Positions 10,481 to 21,000 of a stretch of 64,000 nt of DNA are shown here, piece after piece; position 1 is the stretch's first letter, and each line of letters opens with the position of its first letter. The notes beneath the pieces are model-generated. The model was not told the DNA's origin. It saw only the letters and a program-made list of their open reading frames with translations, and did no database searches. The position numbers and the translations under genes are program-made. This DNA is from Escherichia coli (GTDB taxonomy: Bacteria; Pseudomonadota; Gammaproteobacteria; Enterobacterales; Enterobacteriaceae): the NCBI RefSeq assembly GCF_024700885.2, contig NZ_CP117016.1. One strand, given 5' to 3'.

Positions 10481-11143
10481 ATGAAAACAAAATTGATGAC
10501 ATTACAAGACGCCACCGGCTTCTTTCGTGACGGCATGACCATCATGGTGGGCGGATTTATGGGGATTGGCACTCCATCCCGCCTGGTTGAAGCATTACTG
10601 GAATCTGGTGTTCGCGACCTGACATTGATAGCCAATGATACCGCGTTTGTTGATACTGGCATCGGTCCGCTCATCGTCAATGGTCGAGTCCGCAAAGTGA
10701 TTGCTTCACATATCGGCACCAACCCGGAAACAGGTCGGCGCATGATATCTGGTGAGATGGACGTCGTTCTGGTGCCGCAAGGTACGCTAATCGAGCAAAT
10801 TCGCTGTGGTGGAGCTGGACTTGGTGGTTTTCTCACCCCAACGGGTGTCGGCACCGTCGTAGAGGAAGGCAAACAGACACTGACACTCGACGGTAAAACC
10901 TGGCTGCTCGAACGCCCACTGCGCGCCGACCTGGCGCTAATTCGCGCTCATCGTTGCGACACACTTGGCAACCTGACCTATCACCTTAGCGCCCGCAACT
11001 TTAACCCCCTGATAGCCCTTGCGGCTGATATCACGCTGGTAGAGCCAGATGAACTGGTCGAAACCGGCGAGCTGCAACCTGACCATATTGTCACCCCTGG
11101 TGCCGTTATCGACCACATCATCGTTTCACAGGAGAGCAAATAA
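10481..11143 (+). CDS. atoD: Acetate/acetoacetate CoA-transferase alpha subunit AtoD, 220 aa
   Basis: 220-aa [29 protein letters not shown]; operon context. Confidence 0.9.
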
Positions 11144-11793
11144 TGGATGCGAAACAACGTATTGCGCGCCGTGTGGCGCAAGAGCTTCGTGATGGTGACA
11201 TCGTTAACTTAGGGATCGGTTTACCCACAATGGTCGCCAATTATTTACCGGAGGGTATTCATATCACTCTGCAATCGGAAAACGGCTTCCTCGGTTTAGG
11301 CCCGGTCACGACAGCGCATCCAGATCTGGTGAACGCTGGCGGGCAACCGTGCGGTGTTTTACCCGGTGCAGCCATGTTTGATAGCGCCATGTCATTTGCG
11401 CTAATCCGCGGCGGTCATATTGATGCCTGCGTGCTCGGCGGTTTGCAAGTAGACGAAGAAGCAAACCTCGCGAACTGGGTAGTGCCTGGGAAAATGGTGC
11501 CCGGTATGGGTGGCGCGATGGATCTGGTGACCGGGTCGCGCAAAGTGATCATCGCCATGGAACATTGTGCCAAAGATGGTTCAGCAAAAATTTTGCGCCG
11601 CTGCACCATGCCACTCACTGCGCAACATGCGGTGCATATGCTGGTTACTGAACTGGCTGTCTTTCGTTTTATTGACGGCAAAATGTGGCTCACCGAAATT
11701 GCCGACGGGTGTGATTTAGCCACCGTGCGTGCCAAAACCGAAGCTCGGTTTGAAGTCGCCGCCGATCTGAATACGCAACGGGGTGATTTATGA
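11143..11793 (+). CDS. atoA: Acetate/acetoacetate CoA-transferase beta subunit AtoA, 216 aa
   Basis: 216-aa [31 protein letters not shown]; start overlaps the atoD stop. Confidence 0.9.
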   Translation: MDAKQRIARRVAQELRDGDIVNLGIGLPTMVANYLPEGIHITLQSENGFLGLGPVTTAHPDLVNAGGQPCGVLPGAAMFDSAMSFALIRGGHIDACVLGGLQVDEEANLANWVVPGKMVPGMGGAMDLVTGSRKVIIAMEHCAKDGSAKILRRCTMPLTAQHAVHMLVTELAVFRFIDGKMWLTEIADGCDLATVRAKTEARFEVAADLNTQRGDL

Positions 11794-13112
11794 TTGGTCG
11801 CATATCGCGTTTTATGACGCGTTTTGTCAGCCGGTGGCTTCCCGATCCACTGATCTTTGCCATGTTGCTGACATTGCTAACTTTCGTGATCGCGCTTTGG
11901 TTAACACCACAAACGCCGATCAGCATGGTGAAAATGTGGGGTGACGGTTTCTGGAACTTGCTGGCGTTTGGTATGCAGATGGCGCTTATCATCGTTACCG
12001 GTCATGCCCTTGCCAGCTCTGCTCCGGTAAAAAGTTTGCTGCGTACTGCCGCCTCCGCCGCAAAGACGCCCGTACAGGGCGTCATGCTGGTTACTTTCTT
12101 CGGTTCAGTCGCTTGTGTCATCAACTGGGGATTTGGTTTGGTTGTCGGCGCAATGTTTGCCCGTGAAGTCGCCCGCCGAGTACCCGGTTCTGATTATCCG
12201 TTGCTCATTGCCTGCGCCTACATTGGTTTTCTCACCTGGGGTGGCGGTTTCTCTGGCTCAATGCCTCTGTTGGCTGCAACACCGGGCAACCCGGTTGAGC
12301 ATATCGCCGGGCTGATCCCGGTGGGCGATACTCTGTTCAGTGGTTTTAACATTTTCATCACTGTGGCGTTGATTGTGGTGATGCCATTTATCACCCGCAT
12401 GATGATGCCAAAACCGTCTGACGTGGTGAGTATCGATCCGAAACTACTCATGGAAGAGGCTGATTTCCAAAAGCAGCTACCGAAAGATGCCCCACCATCC
12501 GAGCGACTGGAAGAAAGCCGCATTCTGACGTTGATCATCGGCGCACTCGGTATCGCTTACCTTGCGATGTACTTCAGCGAACATGGCTTCAACATCACCA
12601 TCAATACCGTCAACCTGATGTTTATGATTGCGGGTCTGCTGCTACATAAAACGCCAATGGCTTATATGCGTGCTATCAGCGCGGCAGCACGCAGTACTGC
12701 CGGTATTCTAGTGCAATTCCCCTTCTACGCTGGGATCCAACTGATGATGGAGCATTCCGGTCTGGGCGGACTCATTACCGAATTCTTCATCAATGTTGCG
12801 AACAAAGACACCTTCCCGGTAATGACCTTTTTTAGTTCTGCACTGATTAACTTCGCCGTTCCGTCTGGCGGCGGTCACTGGGTTATTCAGGGACCTTTCG
12901 TGATACCCGCAGCCCAGGCGCTGGGCGCTGATCTTGGTAAATCGGTAATGGCGATCGCCTACGGCGAGCAATGGATGAACATGGCACAACCATTCTGGGC
13001 GCTGCCAGCACTGGCAATCGCCGGACTCGGTGTCCGCGACATCATGGGCTATTGCATCACTGCCCTGCTCTTCTCCGGCGTCATTTTCGTCATTGGTTTA
13101 ACGCTGTTCTGA
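11790..13112 (+). CDS. atoE: Short-chain fatty acid transporter AtoE, 440 aa
   Basis: 440-aa polytopic membrane protein; start overlaps the atoA stop. Confidence 0.9.
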   Translation: MIGRISRFMTRFVSRWLPDPLIFAMLLTLLTFVIALWLTPQTPISMVKMWGDGFWNLLAFGMQMALIIVTGHALASSAPVKSLLRTAASAAKTPVQGVMLVTFFGSVACVINWGFGLVVGAMFAREVARRVPGSDYPLLIACAYIGFLTWGGGFSGSMPLLAATPGNPVEHIAGLIPVGDTLFSGFNIFITVALIVVMPFITRMMMPKPSDVVSIDPKLLMEEADFQKQLPKDAPPSERLEESRILTLIIGALGIAYLAMYFSEHGFNITINTVNLMFMIAGLLLHKTPMAYMRAISAAARSTAGILVQFPFYAGIQLMMEHSGLGGLITEFFINVANKDTFPVMTFFSSALINFAVPSGGGHWVIQGPFVIPAAQALGADLGKSVMAIAYGEQWMNMAQPFWALPALAIAGLGVRDIMGYCITALLFSGVIFVIGLTLF

Positions 13113-13142
13113 CGGCAACCCTACAGACAGAAGGAATAAAAA

Positions 13143-14327
13143 ATGAAAAATTGTGTCATCGTCAGTGCGGTACGTACTGCTATCGGTAGTTTTAACGGTT
13201 CACTCGCTTCCACCAGCGCCATCGACCTGGGGGCGACAGTAATTAAAGCCGCCATTGAACGTGCAAAAATCGATTCACTACACATTGATGAAGTGATTAT
13301 GGGTAACGTGTTGCAAGCCGGGTTGGGGCAAAATCCGGCACGTCAGGCACTGTTAAAAAGCGGGCTGGCAGAAACGGTGTGCGGATTCACGGTCAATAAA
13401 GTGTGTGGTTCGGGTCTTAAAAGTGTGGCGCTTGCCGCCCAGGCAATTCAGGCAGGTCAGGCGCAAAGCATTGTGGCGGGGGGTATGGAAAATATGAGTT
13501 TAGCGCCCTACTTACTCGATGCAAAAGCACGCTCTGGTTATCGTCTTGGAGACGGACAGGTTTATGACGTAATCCTGCGCGATGGTCTGATGTGCGCCAC
13601 CCATGGTTATCATATGGGGATTACCGCCGAGAACGTGGCCAAAGAGTACGGAATTACCCGAGAAATGCAGGATGAACTGGCGCTACATTCACAGCGTAAA
13701 GCGGCAGCCGCAATTGAGTCCGGTGCTTTTACAGCCGAAATCGTCCCGGTAAATGTTGTCACTCGGAAGAAAACCTTCGTCTTCAGTCAAGACGAATTCC
13801 CGAAAGCGGATTCTACGACTGAAGCGTTAGGCGCATTGCGCCCGGCCTTCGATAAAGCAGGAACAGTCACCGCCGGGAACGCGTCTGGTATTAACGACGG
13901 TGCTGCCGCTCTGGTGATTATGGAAGAATCTGCGGCGCTGGCAGCAGGCCTTACCCCCCTGGCTCGCATTAAAAGTTATGCCAGCGGTGGCGTGCCCCCC
14001 GCATTGATGGGTATGGGGCCAGTACCTGCCACGCAAAAAGCGTTACAACTGGCGGGGCTGCAACTGGCGGATATTGATCTCATTGAGGCTAATGAAGCAT
14101 TTGCTGCACAGTTCCTTGCCGTTGGGAAAACCCTGGGCTTTGATTCTGAGAAAGTGAATGTCAACGGCGGGGCCATCGCGCTCGGGCATCCTATCGGTGC
14201 CAGTGGTGCTCGTATTCTGGTCACACTATTACATGCCATGCAGGCACGCGATAAAACGCTGGGGCTGGCAACACTGTGCATTGGTGGCGGCCAGGGAATT
14301 GCGATGGTGATTGAACGGTTGAATTAA
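13143..14327 (+). CDS. atoB: Acetyl-CoA acetyltransferase (thiolase II) AtoB, 394 aa
   Basis: 394-aa [24 protein letters not shown]; thiolase active-site region NKVCGSGLK. Confidence 0.92.
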
Positions 14328-14406
14328 CAAATCAGAACCACTCGCATGGCGGGTGGTTATCTGTTTCAGCCACGATGCGCCAGAAACAGACTAAAGTCAG
14401 AAAAGT

Positions 14407-14431
14407 AAAGGGCCGAATTTTCGGCCCTTTT
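14407..14431. terminator. Bidirectional rho-independent terminator shared by convergent atoB and gyrA
   Basis: Perfect palindrome AAAGGGCCGAA-TT-TTCGGCCCTTT flanked by an A-run on one side and a T-run on the other; 8 bp from the gyrA stop. Confidence 0.7.
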
Positions 14432-14438
14432 AACTTGA

Positions 14439-17075
14439 TTACTCGTCAGCGTCGTCTGCGACATCATCGTCGCTTTCCACTTCCGGAGCGATTTCATCGT
14501 CCCCTTCCGCGGCACTGCCATCGATGGTATCCAGATCTTCCTCGTCAACCGGTTCAGCAACACGTTGCAGACCCACTACGTTTTCATCTTCCGCAGTACG
14601 GATGAGGATCACGCCCTGGGTGTTACGACCTACGATGCTGATTTCCGAAACGCGAGTACGTACCAGCGTACCGGCATCAGTGATCATCATGATCTGGTCG
14701 CAGTCATCTACCTGCACCGCGCCAACCACTAAACCGTTACGTTCGGTAACCTTGATGGAGATAACCCCTTTCGTCGCACGCGACTTAGTCGGGTATTCCG
14801 CCACTGCGGTACGTTTACCATAACCGTTCTGCGTTGCGGTGAGGATTGCGCCATCGCCACGAGGCACGATCAGAGAGACGACTTTATCGCCTTCACCTAA
14901 GCGAATACCGCGAACACCGGTGGTGTTGCAGCCCATCGCACGGACAGAAGACTCTTTAAAGCGCACCACTTTACCTTCGGCGGAGAACAGCATTACTTCA
15001 TCTTCGCCGCTGGTCAGGTCAACGCCGATCAGCTCATCGCCTTCAACCAGTTTGATCGCCACTTTACCGGCGGTACGCAGACGGTTGAATTCGGTGAGGA
15101 CGGTTTTCTTAACAGTACCGTTAGCGGTCGCCATGAAGACTTTCACGCCTTCTTCAAACTCGGTCACCGGCAGGATCGCGGTGATACGTTCGTCCTGCTC
15201 CAGCGGCAGCAGGTTGACAATCGGACGACCGCGCGCGCCACGAGTGGCTTCCGGCAACTGATAGACTTTCATCGAATAGACGCGACCACGGCTGGAGAAG
15301 CACAGAATATGGTCGTGGGTGTTCGCCACCAGCAGTCGGTCAATAAAGTCTTCTTCTTTAATACGTGCGGCAGATTTGCCTTTCCCGCCACGACGCTGCG
15401 CTTCGTATTCAGAAAGCGGCTGATACTTCACGTAGCCCTGGTGAGAGAGCGTCACAACCACATCTTCCTGAGTGATCAGATCTTCCAGGTTGATGTCTGC
15501 GCTGTTGGCGGTGATTTCAGTGCGACGTTTGTCACCGAACTGTTCACGAACCAGTTCCAGCTCTTCGCGGATCACTTCCATCAGACGATCGGCACTGCCA
15601 AGAATACGCAGCAGTTCTGCGATCTGATCCAGCAGCTCTTTATATTCGTCGAGCAGTTTTTCGTGCTCAAGGCCGGTCAGTTTCTGCAAACGCAGATCCA
15701 GAATCGCCTGGGCTTGCTGTTCGGTCAGGTAGTACAGACCGTCACGCACGCCGAACTCTGGCTCCAGCCATTCCGGACGCGCAGCATCATCGCCCGCACG
15801 TTCGAGCATGGCGGCAACGTTGCCCAACTGCCACGGATTAGCAACCAGCGCAGTTTTCGCTTCTGCAGGCGTCGGCGCATGACGGATCAGTTCGATGATC
15901 GGGTCGATGTTCGCCAGCGCCACGGCTAATGCTTCAAGGATATGAGCACGATCGCGAGCTTTACGCAGTTCGAAAATAGTACGACGGGTCACCACTTCAC
16001 GGCGGTGACGAACAAACGCCGCGATGATGTCTTTCAGGTTCATGATCTTCGGCTGACCATGGTGCAATGCCACCATGTTGATACCGAAAGAAACCTGCAA
16101 CTGGGTCTGGGAGTAGAGGTTGTTAAGCACAACTTCACCGACCGCATCGCGTTTCACTTCAATCACGATGCGCATACCGTCTTTGTCAGACTCGTCACGC
16201 AGCGCGCTGATGCCTTCCACGCGTTTTTCTTTTACCAGTTCCGCAATCTTCTCGATCAGGCGCGCTTTGTTCACCTGATACGGAATTTCGTGGACGATAA
16301 TGGTTTCACGTCCGGTTTTGGCGTCAACTTCCACTTCAGCACGGGCGCGGATATATACCTTGCCGCGACCGGTACGGTAAGCTTCTTCAATACCGCGACG
16401 ACCATTAATGATTGCCGCCGTCGGGAAGTCCGGCCCAGGAATGTGTTCCATCAGCCCTTCAATGCTGATGTCTTCATCATCGATATACGCCAGACAACCG
16501 TTGATGACTTCCGTCAGGTTGTGCGGCGGGATGTTGGTTGCCATACCTACGGCGATACCGGAAGAACCGTTCACCAGCAGGTTAGGAATTTTGGTTGGCA
16601 TGACGTCGGGAATTTTTTCCGTGCCGTCATAGTTATCAACGAAATCGACCGTCTCTTTTTCGAGATCGGCCATCAGTTCATGGGCAATTTTCGCCAGACG
16701 GATTTCCGTATAACGCATTGCCGCCGCAGAGTCGCCGTCGATGGAACCGAAGTTACCCTGACCGTCTACCAGCATGTAACGCAGCGAGAATGGCTGCGCC
16801 ATACGGACGATCGTGTCATAAACCGCCAAGTCACCATGGGGATGGTATTTACCGATTACGTCACCAACGACACGGGCAGATTTTTTATAGGCTTTGTTCC
16901 AGTCATTGCCTAGTACGTTCATGGCGTAAAGTACGCGACGGTGTACCGGCTTCAGGCCATCTCGGACATCTGGCAGCGCACGGCCAACAATGACCGACAT
17001 CGCATAATCCAGATAGGAGCTCTTCAGCTCTTCCTCAATGTTGACCGGTGTAATTTCTCTCGCAAGGTCGCTCAT
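14439..17075 (-). CDS. gyrA: DNA gyrase subunit A, 878 aa, carrying Ser83Leu (quinolone-resistance-determining region)
   Basis: [21 protein letters not shown]...; residues 80-87 read HGDLAVYD (wild type HGDSAVYD); codon 83 is TTG at 16829-16827 on the minus strand; Asp87 unchanged. Confidence 0.97.
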
Positions 17076-17959: not shown

Positions 17960-18066
17960 TCATCCGGCAACCGCGCCAATGCCTGATGCGACGCTTGCCG
18001 CGCCTTATCAGGCCTACAAATGCTCCCGTAGGCCAGATAAGGCGTTTACGCCGCATCCGGCAATAG
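17960..18066. repeat. REP elements (BIME-like cluster) between ubiG and yfaL
   Basis: GCCTGATGCGACGCTTGCCGCGCCTTATCAGGCCTAC and GCCGGATGCGGCGTAAACGCCTTATCTGGCCTAC units; source of the spurious MPDATLAAPYQ ORF. Confidence 0.7.
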
Positions 18067-18083
18067 TGCCGGTCAGACAGCGA

Positions 18084-21000
18084 TTACCATTTCACCGTCA
18101 TCGACAAAAACCCTGCCGTCTGGGCAAAATCATCACTCCCTTTCTGCCACGCCACGCTACCACGCAGGGACACTCGCTGACTGATATTGCCCGTGACTCC
18201 CACTTTTAATTCACCCCGTTGCTTCACCGCATCGTCACTGATAGTGCTGCCATCTTCTTCAATTTCCGTCGCATGCGGATCGTGATAATAATTCAGATCT
18301 AATGTTGGTATGACATGAACAGCGGTACGCCATTCGCTGTGTAAACCCAGCCGCGTTTGAATATCATCACCCTGCGATTGTGACACGCGCGCATGGTTAG
18401 CGGCGGTAAAATCATCCTGCTGCACGCCCTGATAAATCACCTGCGCCTGCGGTTCAATCACCACACCACGCCCCGGTAACCACTGATACCCGGCTTCCAG
18501 CGAGGCGATAATCCCCGATGAGTGGTAATGATCCACGCCATCTTCATGTTCGGAAACATCATTGTTAAACCACGCGTATTGCAGCCAGCTATCCAGCCAG
18601 GCCCCCTGCTTCTGATTACCGTGCTGAAACCAGCTTGAGGTCAGACCAACGGCATAACCGTGGTTCTGGTTATCGGCGCGAGTTCCGGTCATATTCGAGC
18701 GGCTGTCGCCCTGGTTATCACTGTAGCCACCAACCGCCCCAAGCATCCACTCGCCATCCGTGCCCCAGCACCCGCTAAACAAGTCGCCGCTAAGCTGCAC
18801 CGTAGAAGTGTCTTCATGCTGAGCCAGTTGCCCCGCTGCTGTGTAATGATAATCTCCGCCGATAACACGTAAATTCAGCGTCTGACCATCGCCACCAGCG
18901 TGATCGTGTCGCTCCATCACAAACGCCTGATTTGCCGCCCGCAGGTTATTAAAATATCCACCAACTTTGGCATTCAACACCGGCTGGTAGGCAGGCGTAG
19001 GGTCCGGGGCCGGGTCGGGTGTTGGATCAGGATCCGGCGTGGGATCAGGATCGGGAGTCGGGTCTGGATCAGGTGGCGATGGTGGCGTTACTTCTTGCGA
19101 TCGCAGATACCAGTCGTTGTTATCTTCCACCAGCGTGTAGTCATATGCTCCCATATTGACGTAGCCGCTGCCTGCCAGACTGAATTGCGCATTGTTTTGA
19201 AACTGCGTTGGATCGGCTGCGAAATCAACCACTTTAATGCCTGTCGATGTCGGCTCACCAATCCCTGTAATGGAGTTAACCATCACAGTTGTGTTGCCAG
19301 CAGTATTACCGTTCATCACCAATTGATCGCTTACCGAGTCATCGCCGTTTAATTCGCTATCGAGCAGTAGCGTACCACCGCCGGTATAATCACCGTTTAC
19401 CGTCAGCGTGTCGCCAGCGACGCCATTTTGCAGGCTGACCGCACCGGACGTATTGGTCAGATTGCCATTAACTGTTACGTCGGAAAGATAAGTCAGGCTG
19501 TCAGTTTCAAGGTTGGTATTAAGCTCGCCTGTCAACGTCACGCCATCGGTGGCATTCACCAGCGTCCCATCGCCGTTAAACAGTGAGGCATTAAGGGCGA
19601 TGGAAGTATCCTGCCCGGTCAGGCGCAAAACCGTACCATCGCTGATGTCGATAGTGCCGCTGGAAGTAACATCAATTGACTGAATATCCTGATCCGCGCC
19701 AGTCTTGAACGTTGCCCCGTCACCGACCCACAGCGACGAAGCATAAGGGAAGATATCCGCTACATCGCCTTGCAGCGTGCCTTCTTCGACACGTACCGCC
19801 GACTGCGTCGTACCACTGGCGGTCATTTCCAGCGTACCCGCTCCCGTTTTAGTCAATGTGCTACCCTCATCCAGATGCTGCCCGCTGCTGTCAGCCATCA
19901 GTGCGCCCCACTGCGTGTCTACCCCCGCATCAACCGCCACTTCACCGTCGGCGCGCATTTCAATATCACGCCCGTGACCTGCTGCCTCTGAACGAGTATC
20001 AACGTCAGCGGTAATTTCCATCTCACTTTGTTGTTGGCTATCAGTAAAGATGAGCTGACGGTTTTCGTCGGTATTGCCAAGCTGCGAGTTGTCGCTCACC
20101 ACCAGCGTACCGGAAGCGATTTGCGTGGTGCCCAGGTAACTATTATTGTTTGCCAGGCTAACCAGCCCGTCGCCCGCATCGATCACCACGTAGACGCCAT
20201 CTTTCTCGTCGCCGCCGATATGCAAATTGTCGCCACCTGCGAGATCCACCACATCCTGACTGCCGATAACCGTACCGCCGCTGCCGCTGACTGCAAGGCC
20301 ATCGTTGTATGATGTGCCGCTCTGCCAGGTGGCGAAATCAGAGAGATCAAGCACGCCGCCGTTTAACACGATCGACTGCGGATCGTCCTGGAGAGCGGCA
20401 AGATCTGCCGCGTCGCCTTCCAGCGTAAGCACCGCGCCATCATCAACGACTATATCGCCAGTTAGCGCCATCGACTGAGCCCCTGCCAGCACGTAGCTGC
20501 CGTTTTGCGCAATGGTGAGCTGACCAGCACCTTCGATGGTGCCAGCAAAACTGCCCTGATTAACAGTAACGTTGCCACCAGCATCGATATTTAAAGTGCC
20601 ATTCTGAAAGCCCGTCAATGCGTGCACAAAAGTTTGTTGGGTCGAGCCAACGTTTAGCTCAGCCTGATTCTGATACTGATCAAGACTCCCTATCGTCAGA
20701 CCGTAGCAGTCTTGCGGATCGTCCTGGCAATGAGTATCTCCGACATTCATCAGGGAGTTGCTGCGACCCAGGGTAACCTCACCGTTTTCTATCTGCATCT
20801 CGCCAGTAAAGTCATTGTTATCTGCATTAAGTACCAGATCGCCGGAACCTGTTTTGGTGATTACCCCGGTACCAGCAATAGAGTCAACAACTCCGTCATT
20901 CTCTGTATTGCCGATAACCAGCGTTTTTCCGTCGGCAATATCAAAGGTAACTTCACTTAAGCCGAGATACATAAAGCCGCCCGCCTCAGTGGAAGGACCA

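Follow-up and report, generated by a model that had tools for sequence, protein, structure and literature searches.

The gyrA gene in the stretch of Escherichia coli DNA analysed here (64,000 nucleotides, hereafter the window) ends in an acidic tail that differs from the tail of the K-12 protein. We consider it quite probable that this end of the gene belongs to an ancestral, uninserted haplotype that has been moved by recombination, with an E. fergusonii-like genome as its most likely source, and that the difference may bear on the function of the acidic tail of GyrA. The gene was identified from the list of open reading frames, from Pfam and from its DNA match to K-12, and the parts of it that matter here are the following.

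14439..17075, minus strand: gyrA coding sequence, 878 codons plus stop
16827..16829, minus strand: codon 83, which encodes Leu (TTG) in place of the Ser (TCG) of K-12 and so gives the quinolone-resistance substitution S83L
14478..14555, minus strand: proximal acidic tail, residues 841-866, the same as in K-12 and with seven conservative differences from Salmonella arizonae
14439..14477, minus strand: variant distal tail, codons 867-878 plus the TAA stop, which replaces K-12 codons 867-875 (DVDDEPEEE)

The first 2,600 bases of the gene share 97.7% DNA identity with K-12 gyrA, and ubiG adjoins it, as in annotated genomes. The encoded protein has the N-terminal topoisomerase IV/gyrase A domain (PF00521, 541 bits, residues 32-507) and the catalytic Tyr122 (codon TAT at 16710-16712). 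Likewise, six PF03989 repeats (256 bits) and a GyrA box, QRRGGKG, at residue 560 are present, which is the make-up of the six-bladed beta-pinwheel. Up to Val866 the window GyrA differs from K-12 GyrA only by S83L and D678E, and within the QRDR Ser83Leu is present while Asp87 is unchanged.

The original prediction, which concerned positions 14439-14520 (the stop codon and the final 26 codons), held that the tail differs from that of K-12 in both length and sequence. Comparison of the translations bears this out. The gyrA gene of K-12 MG1655 (NC_000913 2336793-2339420) encodes a protein of 875 residues with the C-terminal end APEVDVDDEPEEE, as against 878 residues in the window, and when the two proteins are aligned their tails are not identical. 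The window tail comprises 38 residues, 20 of them acidic, whereas the K-12 tail comprises 35 residues, 19 of them acidic. The first 26 residues are the same in the two tails, both of which are acidic and contain no basic residues; the window then continues with 12 residues (867-878, encoded at 14442-14477) where K-12 has the nine residues DVDDEPEEE, its terminator is a different one, and the yfa cluster lies downstream in K-12 only. The window does not, in other words, have the K-12-type 35-residue tail with a DVDDEPEEE end and yfaA downstream. This is a real, deterministic difference in sequence, to which chance does not apply, and an assembly artefact is ruled out by the presence of the same tail in 26 complete genomes and in over 1,200 contigs from public assemblies.

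When the DNA of the window is aligned with that of K-12, or with that of AST215 (the yfa-positive E. coli strain nearest to it in this region), the match breaks off at 14330, which is 3 bases beyond the atoB stop, and resumes at 14476 within gyrA codon 867. On the gyrA side the first base that differs from K-12 is 14475, and homology holds to 14476. Given this break in the alignments, the difference in the tail marks one edge of a polymorphism in which a 9.5-kb gene cluster is either present or absent. The features at this junction are as follows.

13143..14327, plus strand: atoB (acetyl-CoA acetyltransferase), 98.1% identical to K-12 atoB, the left flank of the polymorphism
14331..14475, no strand assigned: a 145-bp segment without a homologue in K-12-type genomes, standing where 9,523 bp sit in K-12
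14336..14358, plus strand: intrinsic terminator hairpin of atoB, from a terminator scan
14407..14430, minus strand: intrinsic terminator hairpin of gyrA, a 10-bp stem followed by a U-rich run, from a terminator scan

In the window, atoB is convergent with gyrA and lies 111 bp from the gyrA stop. The 145 bp hold 12 gyrA codons and the stop, the gyrA terminator hairpin (RNA fold of -17.4 to -18.9 kcal/mol, z -4.9), a spacer and the atoB terminator hairpin (RNA fold of -17.3 kcal/mol, z -3.6). In their place, the 9,523 bp of K-12 and AST215 hold yfaP-yfaQ-yfaS-yfaT-yfaA, another gyrA downstream region and the last nine gyrA codons; yfaS is a gene of the alpha-2-macroglobulin family and is a pseudogene in K-12. 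An Rfam scan of 14250-14550 gave no match near a gathering score, the best being 19 bits against a threshold of 44.

The two forms of the junction were placed in a wider setting with an outgroup scan, which used a degenerate pattern that favours tails of the form IAPE[VA][DE]xDD[DE], took one genome per species and returned approximately 100 enterobacterial gyrA 3' ends among the matches listed; representatives of E. marmotae, E. ruysiae, E. whittamii, E. coli and E. fergusonii are absent among these matches. Nearly all of the enterobacterial gyrA ends among the matches listed are variants of the distal 12-residue tail of the window, and those from Salmonella enterica subsp. arizonae, Citrobacter amalonaticus S646 and Enterobacter sp. 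R1, again among the matches listed, have its exact 12 residues. The same 12 residues are found in strain SCPM-O-B-8794, which was deposited as E. coli, and in E. fergusonii. At 78-81% DNA identity, the homology that the window shares with Citrobacter and Salmonella spans the stop codon and stops precisely where the gyrA terminator hairpin ends; this hairpin is conserved as GGGCCG...CGGCCC, so that the window has both the distal tail and the terminator of the enterobacterial type. Among the matches listed, the convergent neighbour of gyrA is rcsC in most genera and atoB in Citrobacter, Atlantibacter and a few others. The DVDDEPEEE tail occurs among the matches listed in Escherichia only (E. albertii, sp. 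E1V33 and sp. MOD1-EC7003), each time with yfaA downstream. Since the outgroups Salmonella, Citrobacter and Enterobacter have the same tail and terminator, and since in Citrobacter gyrA also faces atoB, these comparisons show the window to carry the ancestral enterobacterial end of gyrA, and the C-terminus of K-12 to be the derived one.

The yfa-positive state of E. albertii is 85-92% identical to that of K-12, indicating that both states are old in the genus. E. albertii is usually placed outside the group formed by E. coli and E. fergusonii. Given that its junction is nevertheless of the inserted type, the distribution is not accounted for by one clean insertion on the species tree.

In most E. 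coli and in E. albertii the yfaP-yfaQ-yfaS-yfaT-yfaA cluster sits between atoB and gyrA, and on the gyrA side the insertion reaches into the gene. There it has overwritten the 12 final codons together with the stop and the terminator that followed them, and has supplied nine other codons (DVDDEPEEE) and other sequence downstream. The window keeps the haplotype without the insertion: atoB with its terminator, the spacer, and the older gyrA terminator and 12 codons, 145 bp altogether. Its GyrA therefore has 878 residues. The opposite course of events would be a recent deletion of the yfa cluster in situ that fused gyrA to new sequence and produced a novel tail by accident. The cluster is indeed missing at this locus, with one breakpoint within gyrA, and other deletions within the cluster exist (46 genomes have no yfaS match, as compared with 26 that carry the variant). 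However, Salmonella, Citrobacter, Enterobacter and E. fergusonii have homologues of both the 12 codons and the terminator, and the 145-bp segment was found nowhere in the yfa-positive E. coli genomes among 5,426 complete genomes. A deletion could therefore not have produced the segment, and an origin by de novo deletion, which the homology to the outgroups refutes, is extremely improbable.

The variant tail together with the intergenic segment was found in 26 of the 5,426 complete RefSeq E. coli genomes (0.5%), while 5,398 of them have the K-12-type junction of gyrA tail and yfaA. As many as 24 of the 26 match the window at approximately 100% identity across 25 kb and represent one clone, whose members include O166:H15 strains as well as isolates from humans, chickens, a dog and water. 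Of these, strain MLI114 is closest to the window, and it also matches window positions 24512-64000 with one mismatch. Strains N3 and 19KM1831, by comparison, are 98.3-98.5% identical to the window over 25 kb, a distance like that between unrelated E. coli. In all three of the variant complete genomes whose annotation was inspected, gyrA faces atoB with no yfa genes between them, and the same arrangement was observed in eight of eight further contexts of the N3-type protein. In a large protein collection, five exact 878-residue forms occur on at least 1000, 104, 85, 22 and 17 contigs, respectively, and the form on 85 contigs is the S83L form of the window. The allele is proportionally rare, yet its absolute numbers are high and RefSeq already contains it.

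These carriers also bear on the relation between the tail and S83L, which the original prediction had taken to be unrelated. The two changes do occur in one protein in the window, as would be expected if the tail were a compensatory or co-selected change tied to the quinolone-resistance mutation. Against this, strain 1190, which belongs to the same clone and shows 2 differences over 22.7 kb, combines the same tail with Ser83, and Ser83 accompanies the same tail in N3, 19KM1831, SCPM-O-B-8794 and E. fergusonii as well. The Ser83 form is also far commoner than the S83L form, occurring on at least 1000 contigs versus 85. Because the clone-mate 1190 and the other Ser83 carriers have the same tail, the tail is independent of S83L, as had been supposed; a link between the two is refuted by these carriers and we give it almost no credence.

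Outside E. coli, an exact-protein look-up recovered E. fergusonii: the N3-type protein of 878 residues is encoded in CP042945.1 and CP057104.1, which papers identify as E. fergusonii ATCC 35471 and RHB38-C01. In the E. fergusonii genomes examined, the uninserted form is the usual state, and their segment is nearly the same. As in the window, the gene order in E. fergusonii is ubiG / gyrA / atoB-atoE-atoA-atoD, and its GyrA of 878 residues has the same sequence as the protein of E. coli N3; it is nonetheless another species, and the flanking genes diverge accordingly. DNA identity between E. fergusonii and the window is 97.0-97.5% for gyrA, 93.3% for atoB and only 84% for atoE-atoA-atoD, as compared with 98.7% for the tail plus spacer. 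The 145-bp segment of E. fergusonii differs from that of the window by one substitution and one 1-base indel, whereas the 130 bp of atoB that follow have 10-12 differing sites and the adjoining 150 bp of gyrA have 4-7. The segment thus shows 2 differences against an expectation of 4-10; the corresponding Poisson P is 0.003-0.25, depending on the rate used, and concerns 145 bp only. This near-identity suggests gene flow, without proving it.

A second lineage with the uninserted form, represented by SCPM-O-B-8794 (locus L020), shares only 88% identity with the window across 9.9 kb. Its tail plus spacer is 93% identical to that of the window, with approximately 11 differing sites and a 4-nt insertion in the segment. 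These values also speak to a recent import of the tail from Salmonella or Citrobacter, an idea to which the identity of the distal 12 residues with those of Salmonella arizonae and Citrobacter amalonaticus lends some appeal. The DNA of the tail region is only 78-81% identical to that of those genera, however, as opposed to 98.7% for E. fergusonii and 93% for the other Escherichia lineage, and a Salmonella or Citrobacter donor is disfavoured to the point of being very improbable indeed.

Among the E. coli carriers, the segments show 0-1 differences while the flanks differ by 1.5-4%. The immediate flanks of these carriers are E. coli-like and not E. fergusonii-like. N3, 19KM1831, L127 and L133 share a patch of atoB at approximately 14093-14190 that resembles E. 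fergusonii and SCPM-O-B-8794. When compared with AST215, the window is near-identical on both outer sides and 1.5% divergent across gyrA positions 14476-16500, a pattern resembling that of a recombination tract with one end at the junction. Given that the haplotype is rare and sits in ordinary E. coli flanks that differ by 1.5-4%, we infer that it is a young allele that has probably spread among E. coli backgrounds by homologous recombination. The crossovers of such transfers would lie in gyrA and in atoB.

It is conceivable, though rather unlikely, that the uninserted haplotype is instead an old rare polymorphism kept in E. coli since before the species split, without any transfer from E. fergusonii, and that the near-identity of the segments reflects constraint on the two terminators and the acidic codons, or chance. 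The gyrA and atoB flanks of the carriers are ordinary E. coli and no nearer to other Escherichia than are those of yfa-positive strains, approximately 47 of the 145 bases lie within hairpins, and 2 differences in 145 bp would not be unusual at a gyrA-like substitution rate (P ~0.25). The divergence of SCPM-O-B-8794 in this same segment, at approximately 11 sites plus the 4-nt insertion, argues in turn that constraint is weak, and flanks that are 1.5-4% apart around segments with 0-1 differences point to an allele that is young and has spread. On the sequence comparisons made here, an E. fergusonii-like donor is the most likely source of the uninserted haplotype in these strains.

As for what the altered tail might do, PMC11626157, which cites Tretter & Berger 2012, describes the acidic tail of GyrA as required for efficient supercoiling, and as thought to control the wrapping of DNA on the C-terminal domain. 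The tail has been reported as the element that makes the E. coli and Salmonella gyrases differ in vivo (Rovinskiy et al. 2019, PMC6463007). That study gives the E. coli tail as 35 residues with 19 acidic and the Salmonella tail as 38 residues with 20 acidic, and proposes that the 'stronger' Salmonella tail favours DNA release. Swaps of the tail between E. coli and Salmonella, in which all 35 or 38 residues were exchanged, had strong effects in vivo, and the slow growth of E. coli with Salmonella GyrA was cured by the 35-residue E. coli tail alone (PMC6463007).

The residue counts of the window tail equal the figures published for Salmonella, so that it is of the Salmonella type in length and charge. 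The entire difference in length and charge between the tails of the two species falls in the distal part, where the window is the same as Salmonella. Its proximal 26 residues, on the other hand, do not have the Salmonella form: they are those of K-12 and depart from Salmonella by seven conservative differences (E/D four times, T/A, A/V and V/A). The window tail is thus a hybrid of two characterised forms, with a K-12 proximal part and a Salmonella-type distal part. Likeness to Salmonella extends to the length, the acidic count, the distal 12 residues and DNA that is homologous through the terminator hairpin, whereas the rest of the window protein is E. coli-type and its downstream neighbour is atoB where Salmonella has rcsC.

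By analogy with these studies, the tail of the window GyrA would act as a disordered acidic C-terminal tail that competes with DNA for the beta-pinwheel domain, and it would in this way tune wrapping, processivity and the supercoiling set point. The published 'rheostat' model would predict a shift towards a Salmonella-like, less processive gyrase, and the enzyme encoded in the window may be closer to the Salmonella gyrase in its tail-dependent properties. The difference had been put down to neutral lineage variation, and this was right only in part. Local drift does not describe a tail that is the end of a structural polymorphism of 145 bp versus 9.5 kb and that is found in several unrelated flanking backgrounds. 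Given that the tail matches that of Salmonella in length and acidic count, and that the published swaps had strong effects in vivo (PMC6463007), its neutrality should not be assumed. The evident fitness of the carrier lineages, which account for more than 1,200 contigs, is equally well compatible with near-neutrality. A bolder reading, which we regard as doubtful and put forward very tentatively, is that the 878-residue allele is a natural 'rheostat' variant which, through a tail of Salmonella length and charge, measurably lowers processivity and the chromosomal supercoiling set point in the carriers and in E. fergusonii, and that one recombination event both brought it into E. coli from E. 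fergusonii and took away the alpha-2-macroglobulin cluster. If this were true, the regulatory tail of an essential enzyme would be exchanged together with an accessory cluster.

Insertions of genomic islets that overwrite the 3' end of a neighbouring gene are a general phenomenon. The K-12 arrangement resembles them in that a 9.5-kb accessory cluster reaches with one edge into a coding sequence and provides the gene with another C-terminus and another terminator; it differs in that gyrA is essential and the part replaced is a regulatory tail. Nothing that would mark a mobile element, such as an integrase, a tRNA or repeats, was noticed in passing at the edges. In the open-access text searched, no published description of this polymorphism was found. 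The feature is real and structurally richer than was first supposed, and it is made up of known parts that are already in databases. For pipelines that use a K-12 gyrA reference, carriers will show a mismatch at the 3' end and a protein of 878 residues, neither of which is an error or related to resistance. For the biology of E. coli, the 'reference' C-terminus of an essential protein, as found in K-12, is a by-product of the insertion of an accessory cluster, and the ancestral end is still in circulation, at low frequency. The carrier E. coli strains and E. fergusonii offer a ready-made natural test of the tail model, and of the dependence of E. coli on its own tail.

A megablast search of 5,426 complete RefSeq E. 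coli genomes returned no yfaS match in 46 of them, whereas the variant gyrA end, which encodes an 878-amino-acid GyrA and in which a 145-bp segment (14331-14475) replaces the yfa cluster, is present in only 26. The difference between these counts indicates that about 20 genomes carry other deletions inside the yfa cluster and have kept the K-12-type gyrA tail. One such deletion is found in PSJ-12, where a CoA-transferase gene adjoins the DUF1175 gene. In each search made, one record typed as a plasmid contained the gyrA 3' end; the likely explanation is that a chromosomal replicon was mislabelled or that the assembly is at fault.

Identity between Escherichia species falls sharply across the junction between gyrA and the atoD-atoA-atoE-atoB genes (10481-14327). 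When the window is compared with the E. fergusonii loci L128 and L130, identity is 97% in gyrA and 93% in atoB, but only 84% in atoE-atoA-atoD. The corresponding values against SCPM-O-B-8794, a genome deposited as E. coli, are 96%, 90% and 86-88%. Judged from these sequence comparisons, the ato operon seems to be much more divergent between species than the neighbouring genes are.

Within atoB, a run of approximately eight variants (about 14093-14190) is common to N3, 19KM1831, L127 and L133, all E. coli that carry the variant gyrA end, and to E. fergusonii and SCPM-O-B-8794. The run is absent from the window, L131 and the yfa-positive strains K-12 and AST215. In N3, 19KM1831, L127 and L133, it may be what is left of a longer imported tract. 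The atoB gene of N3 is marked as frameshifted in its annotation (L003 12234-13417).

Eleven genomes of the window's clone have an extra 1.28 kb between ubiG and yfaL, at about 18000-18200 in window coordinates, and the window is without it. Annotation of elppa4, the single clone-mate inspected, and of MLI114, a near-identical genome, places the following elements:

L126 (elppa4) 18208-19188: the extra sequence between ubiG and yfaL; IS621 (IS110-like) element.
Window about 41391-43042 (from MLI114): ISEc46, an IS200/IS605-like element encoding TnpA and the RNA-guided endonuclease TnpB/InsQ.

In the MLI114 annotation, truncated pieces of regulators of the helix-turn-helix and IclR families border ISEc46, beside yfaU and MFS transporter genes.

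At residue 678 of GyrA, the window encodes glutamate (GAA, 15042-15044) and K-12 encodes aspartate (GAC). This D678E change, which the window has in common with its clone-mate 1190, 19KM1831, SCPM-O-B-8794 and Escherichia sp. E1V33, is a common polymorphism without relation to the tail. The tail itself has an Ala-to-Pro change in 19KM1831 and an Ala-to-Val change in P0007, a GyrA protein found on 446 contigs that also carries S83L and D87Y. Outside the window, P0008 is an E. coli GyrA of 883 amino acids that occurs on 12 contigs; in its acidic tail, the stretch EGDDEIAP is duplicated in tandem. Natural variation is tolerated by the GyrA tail.
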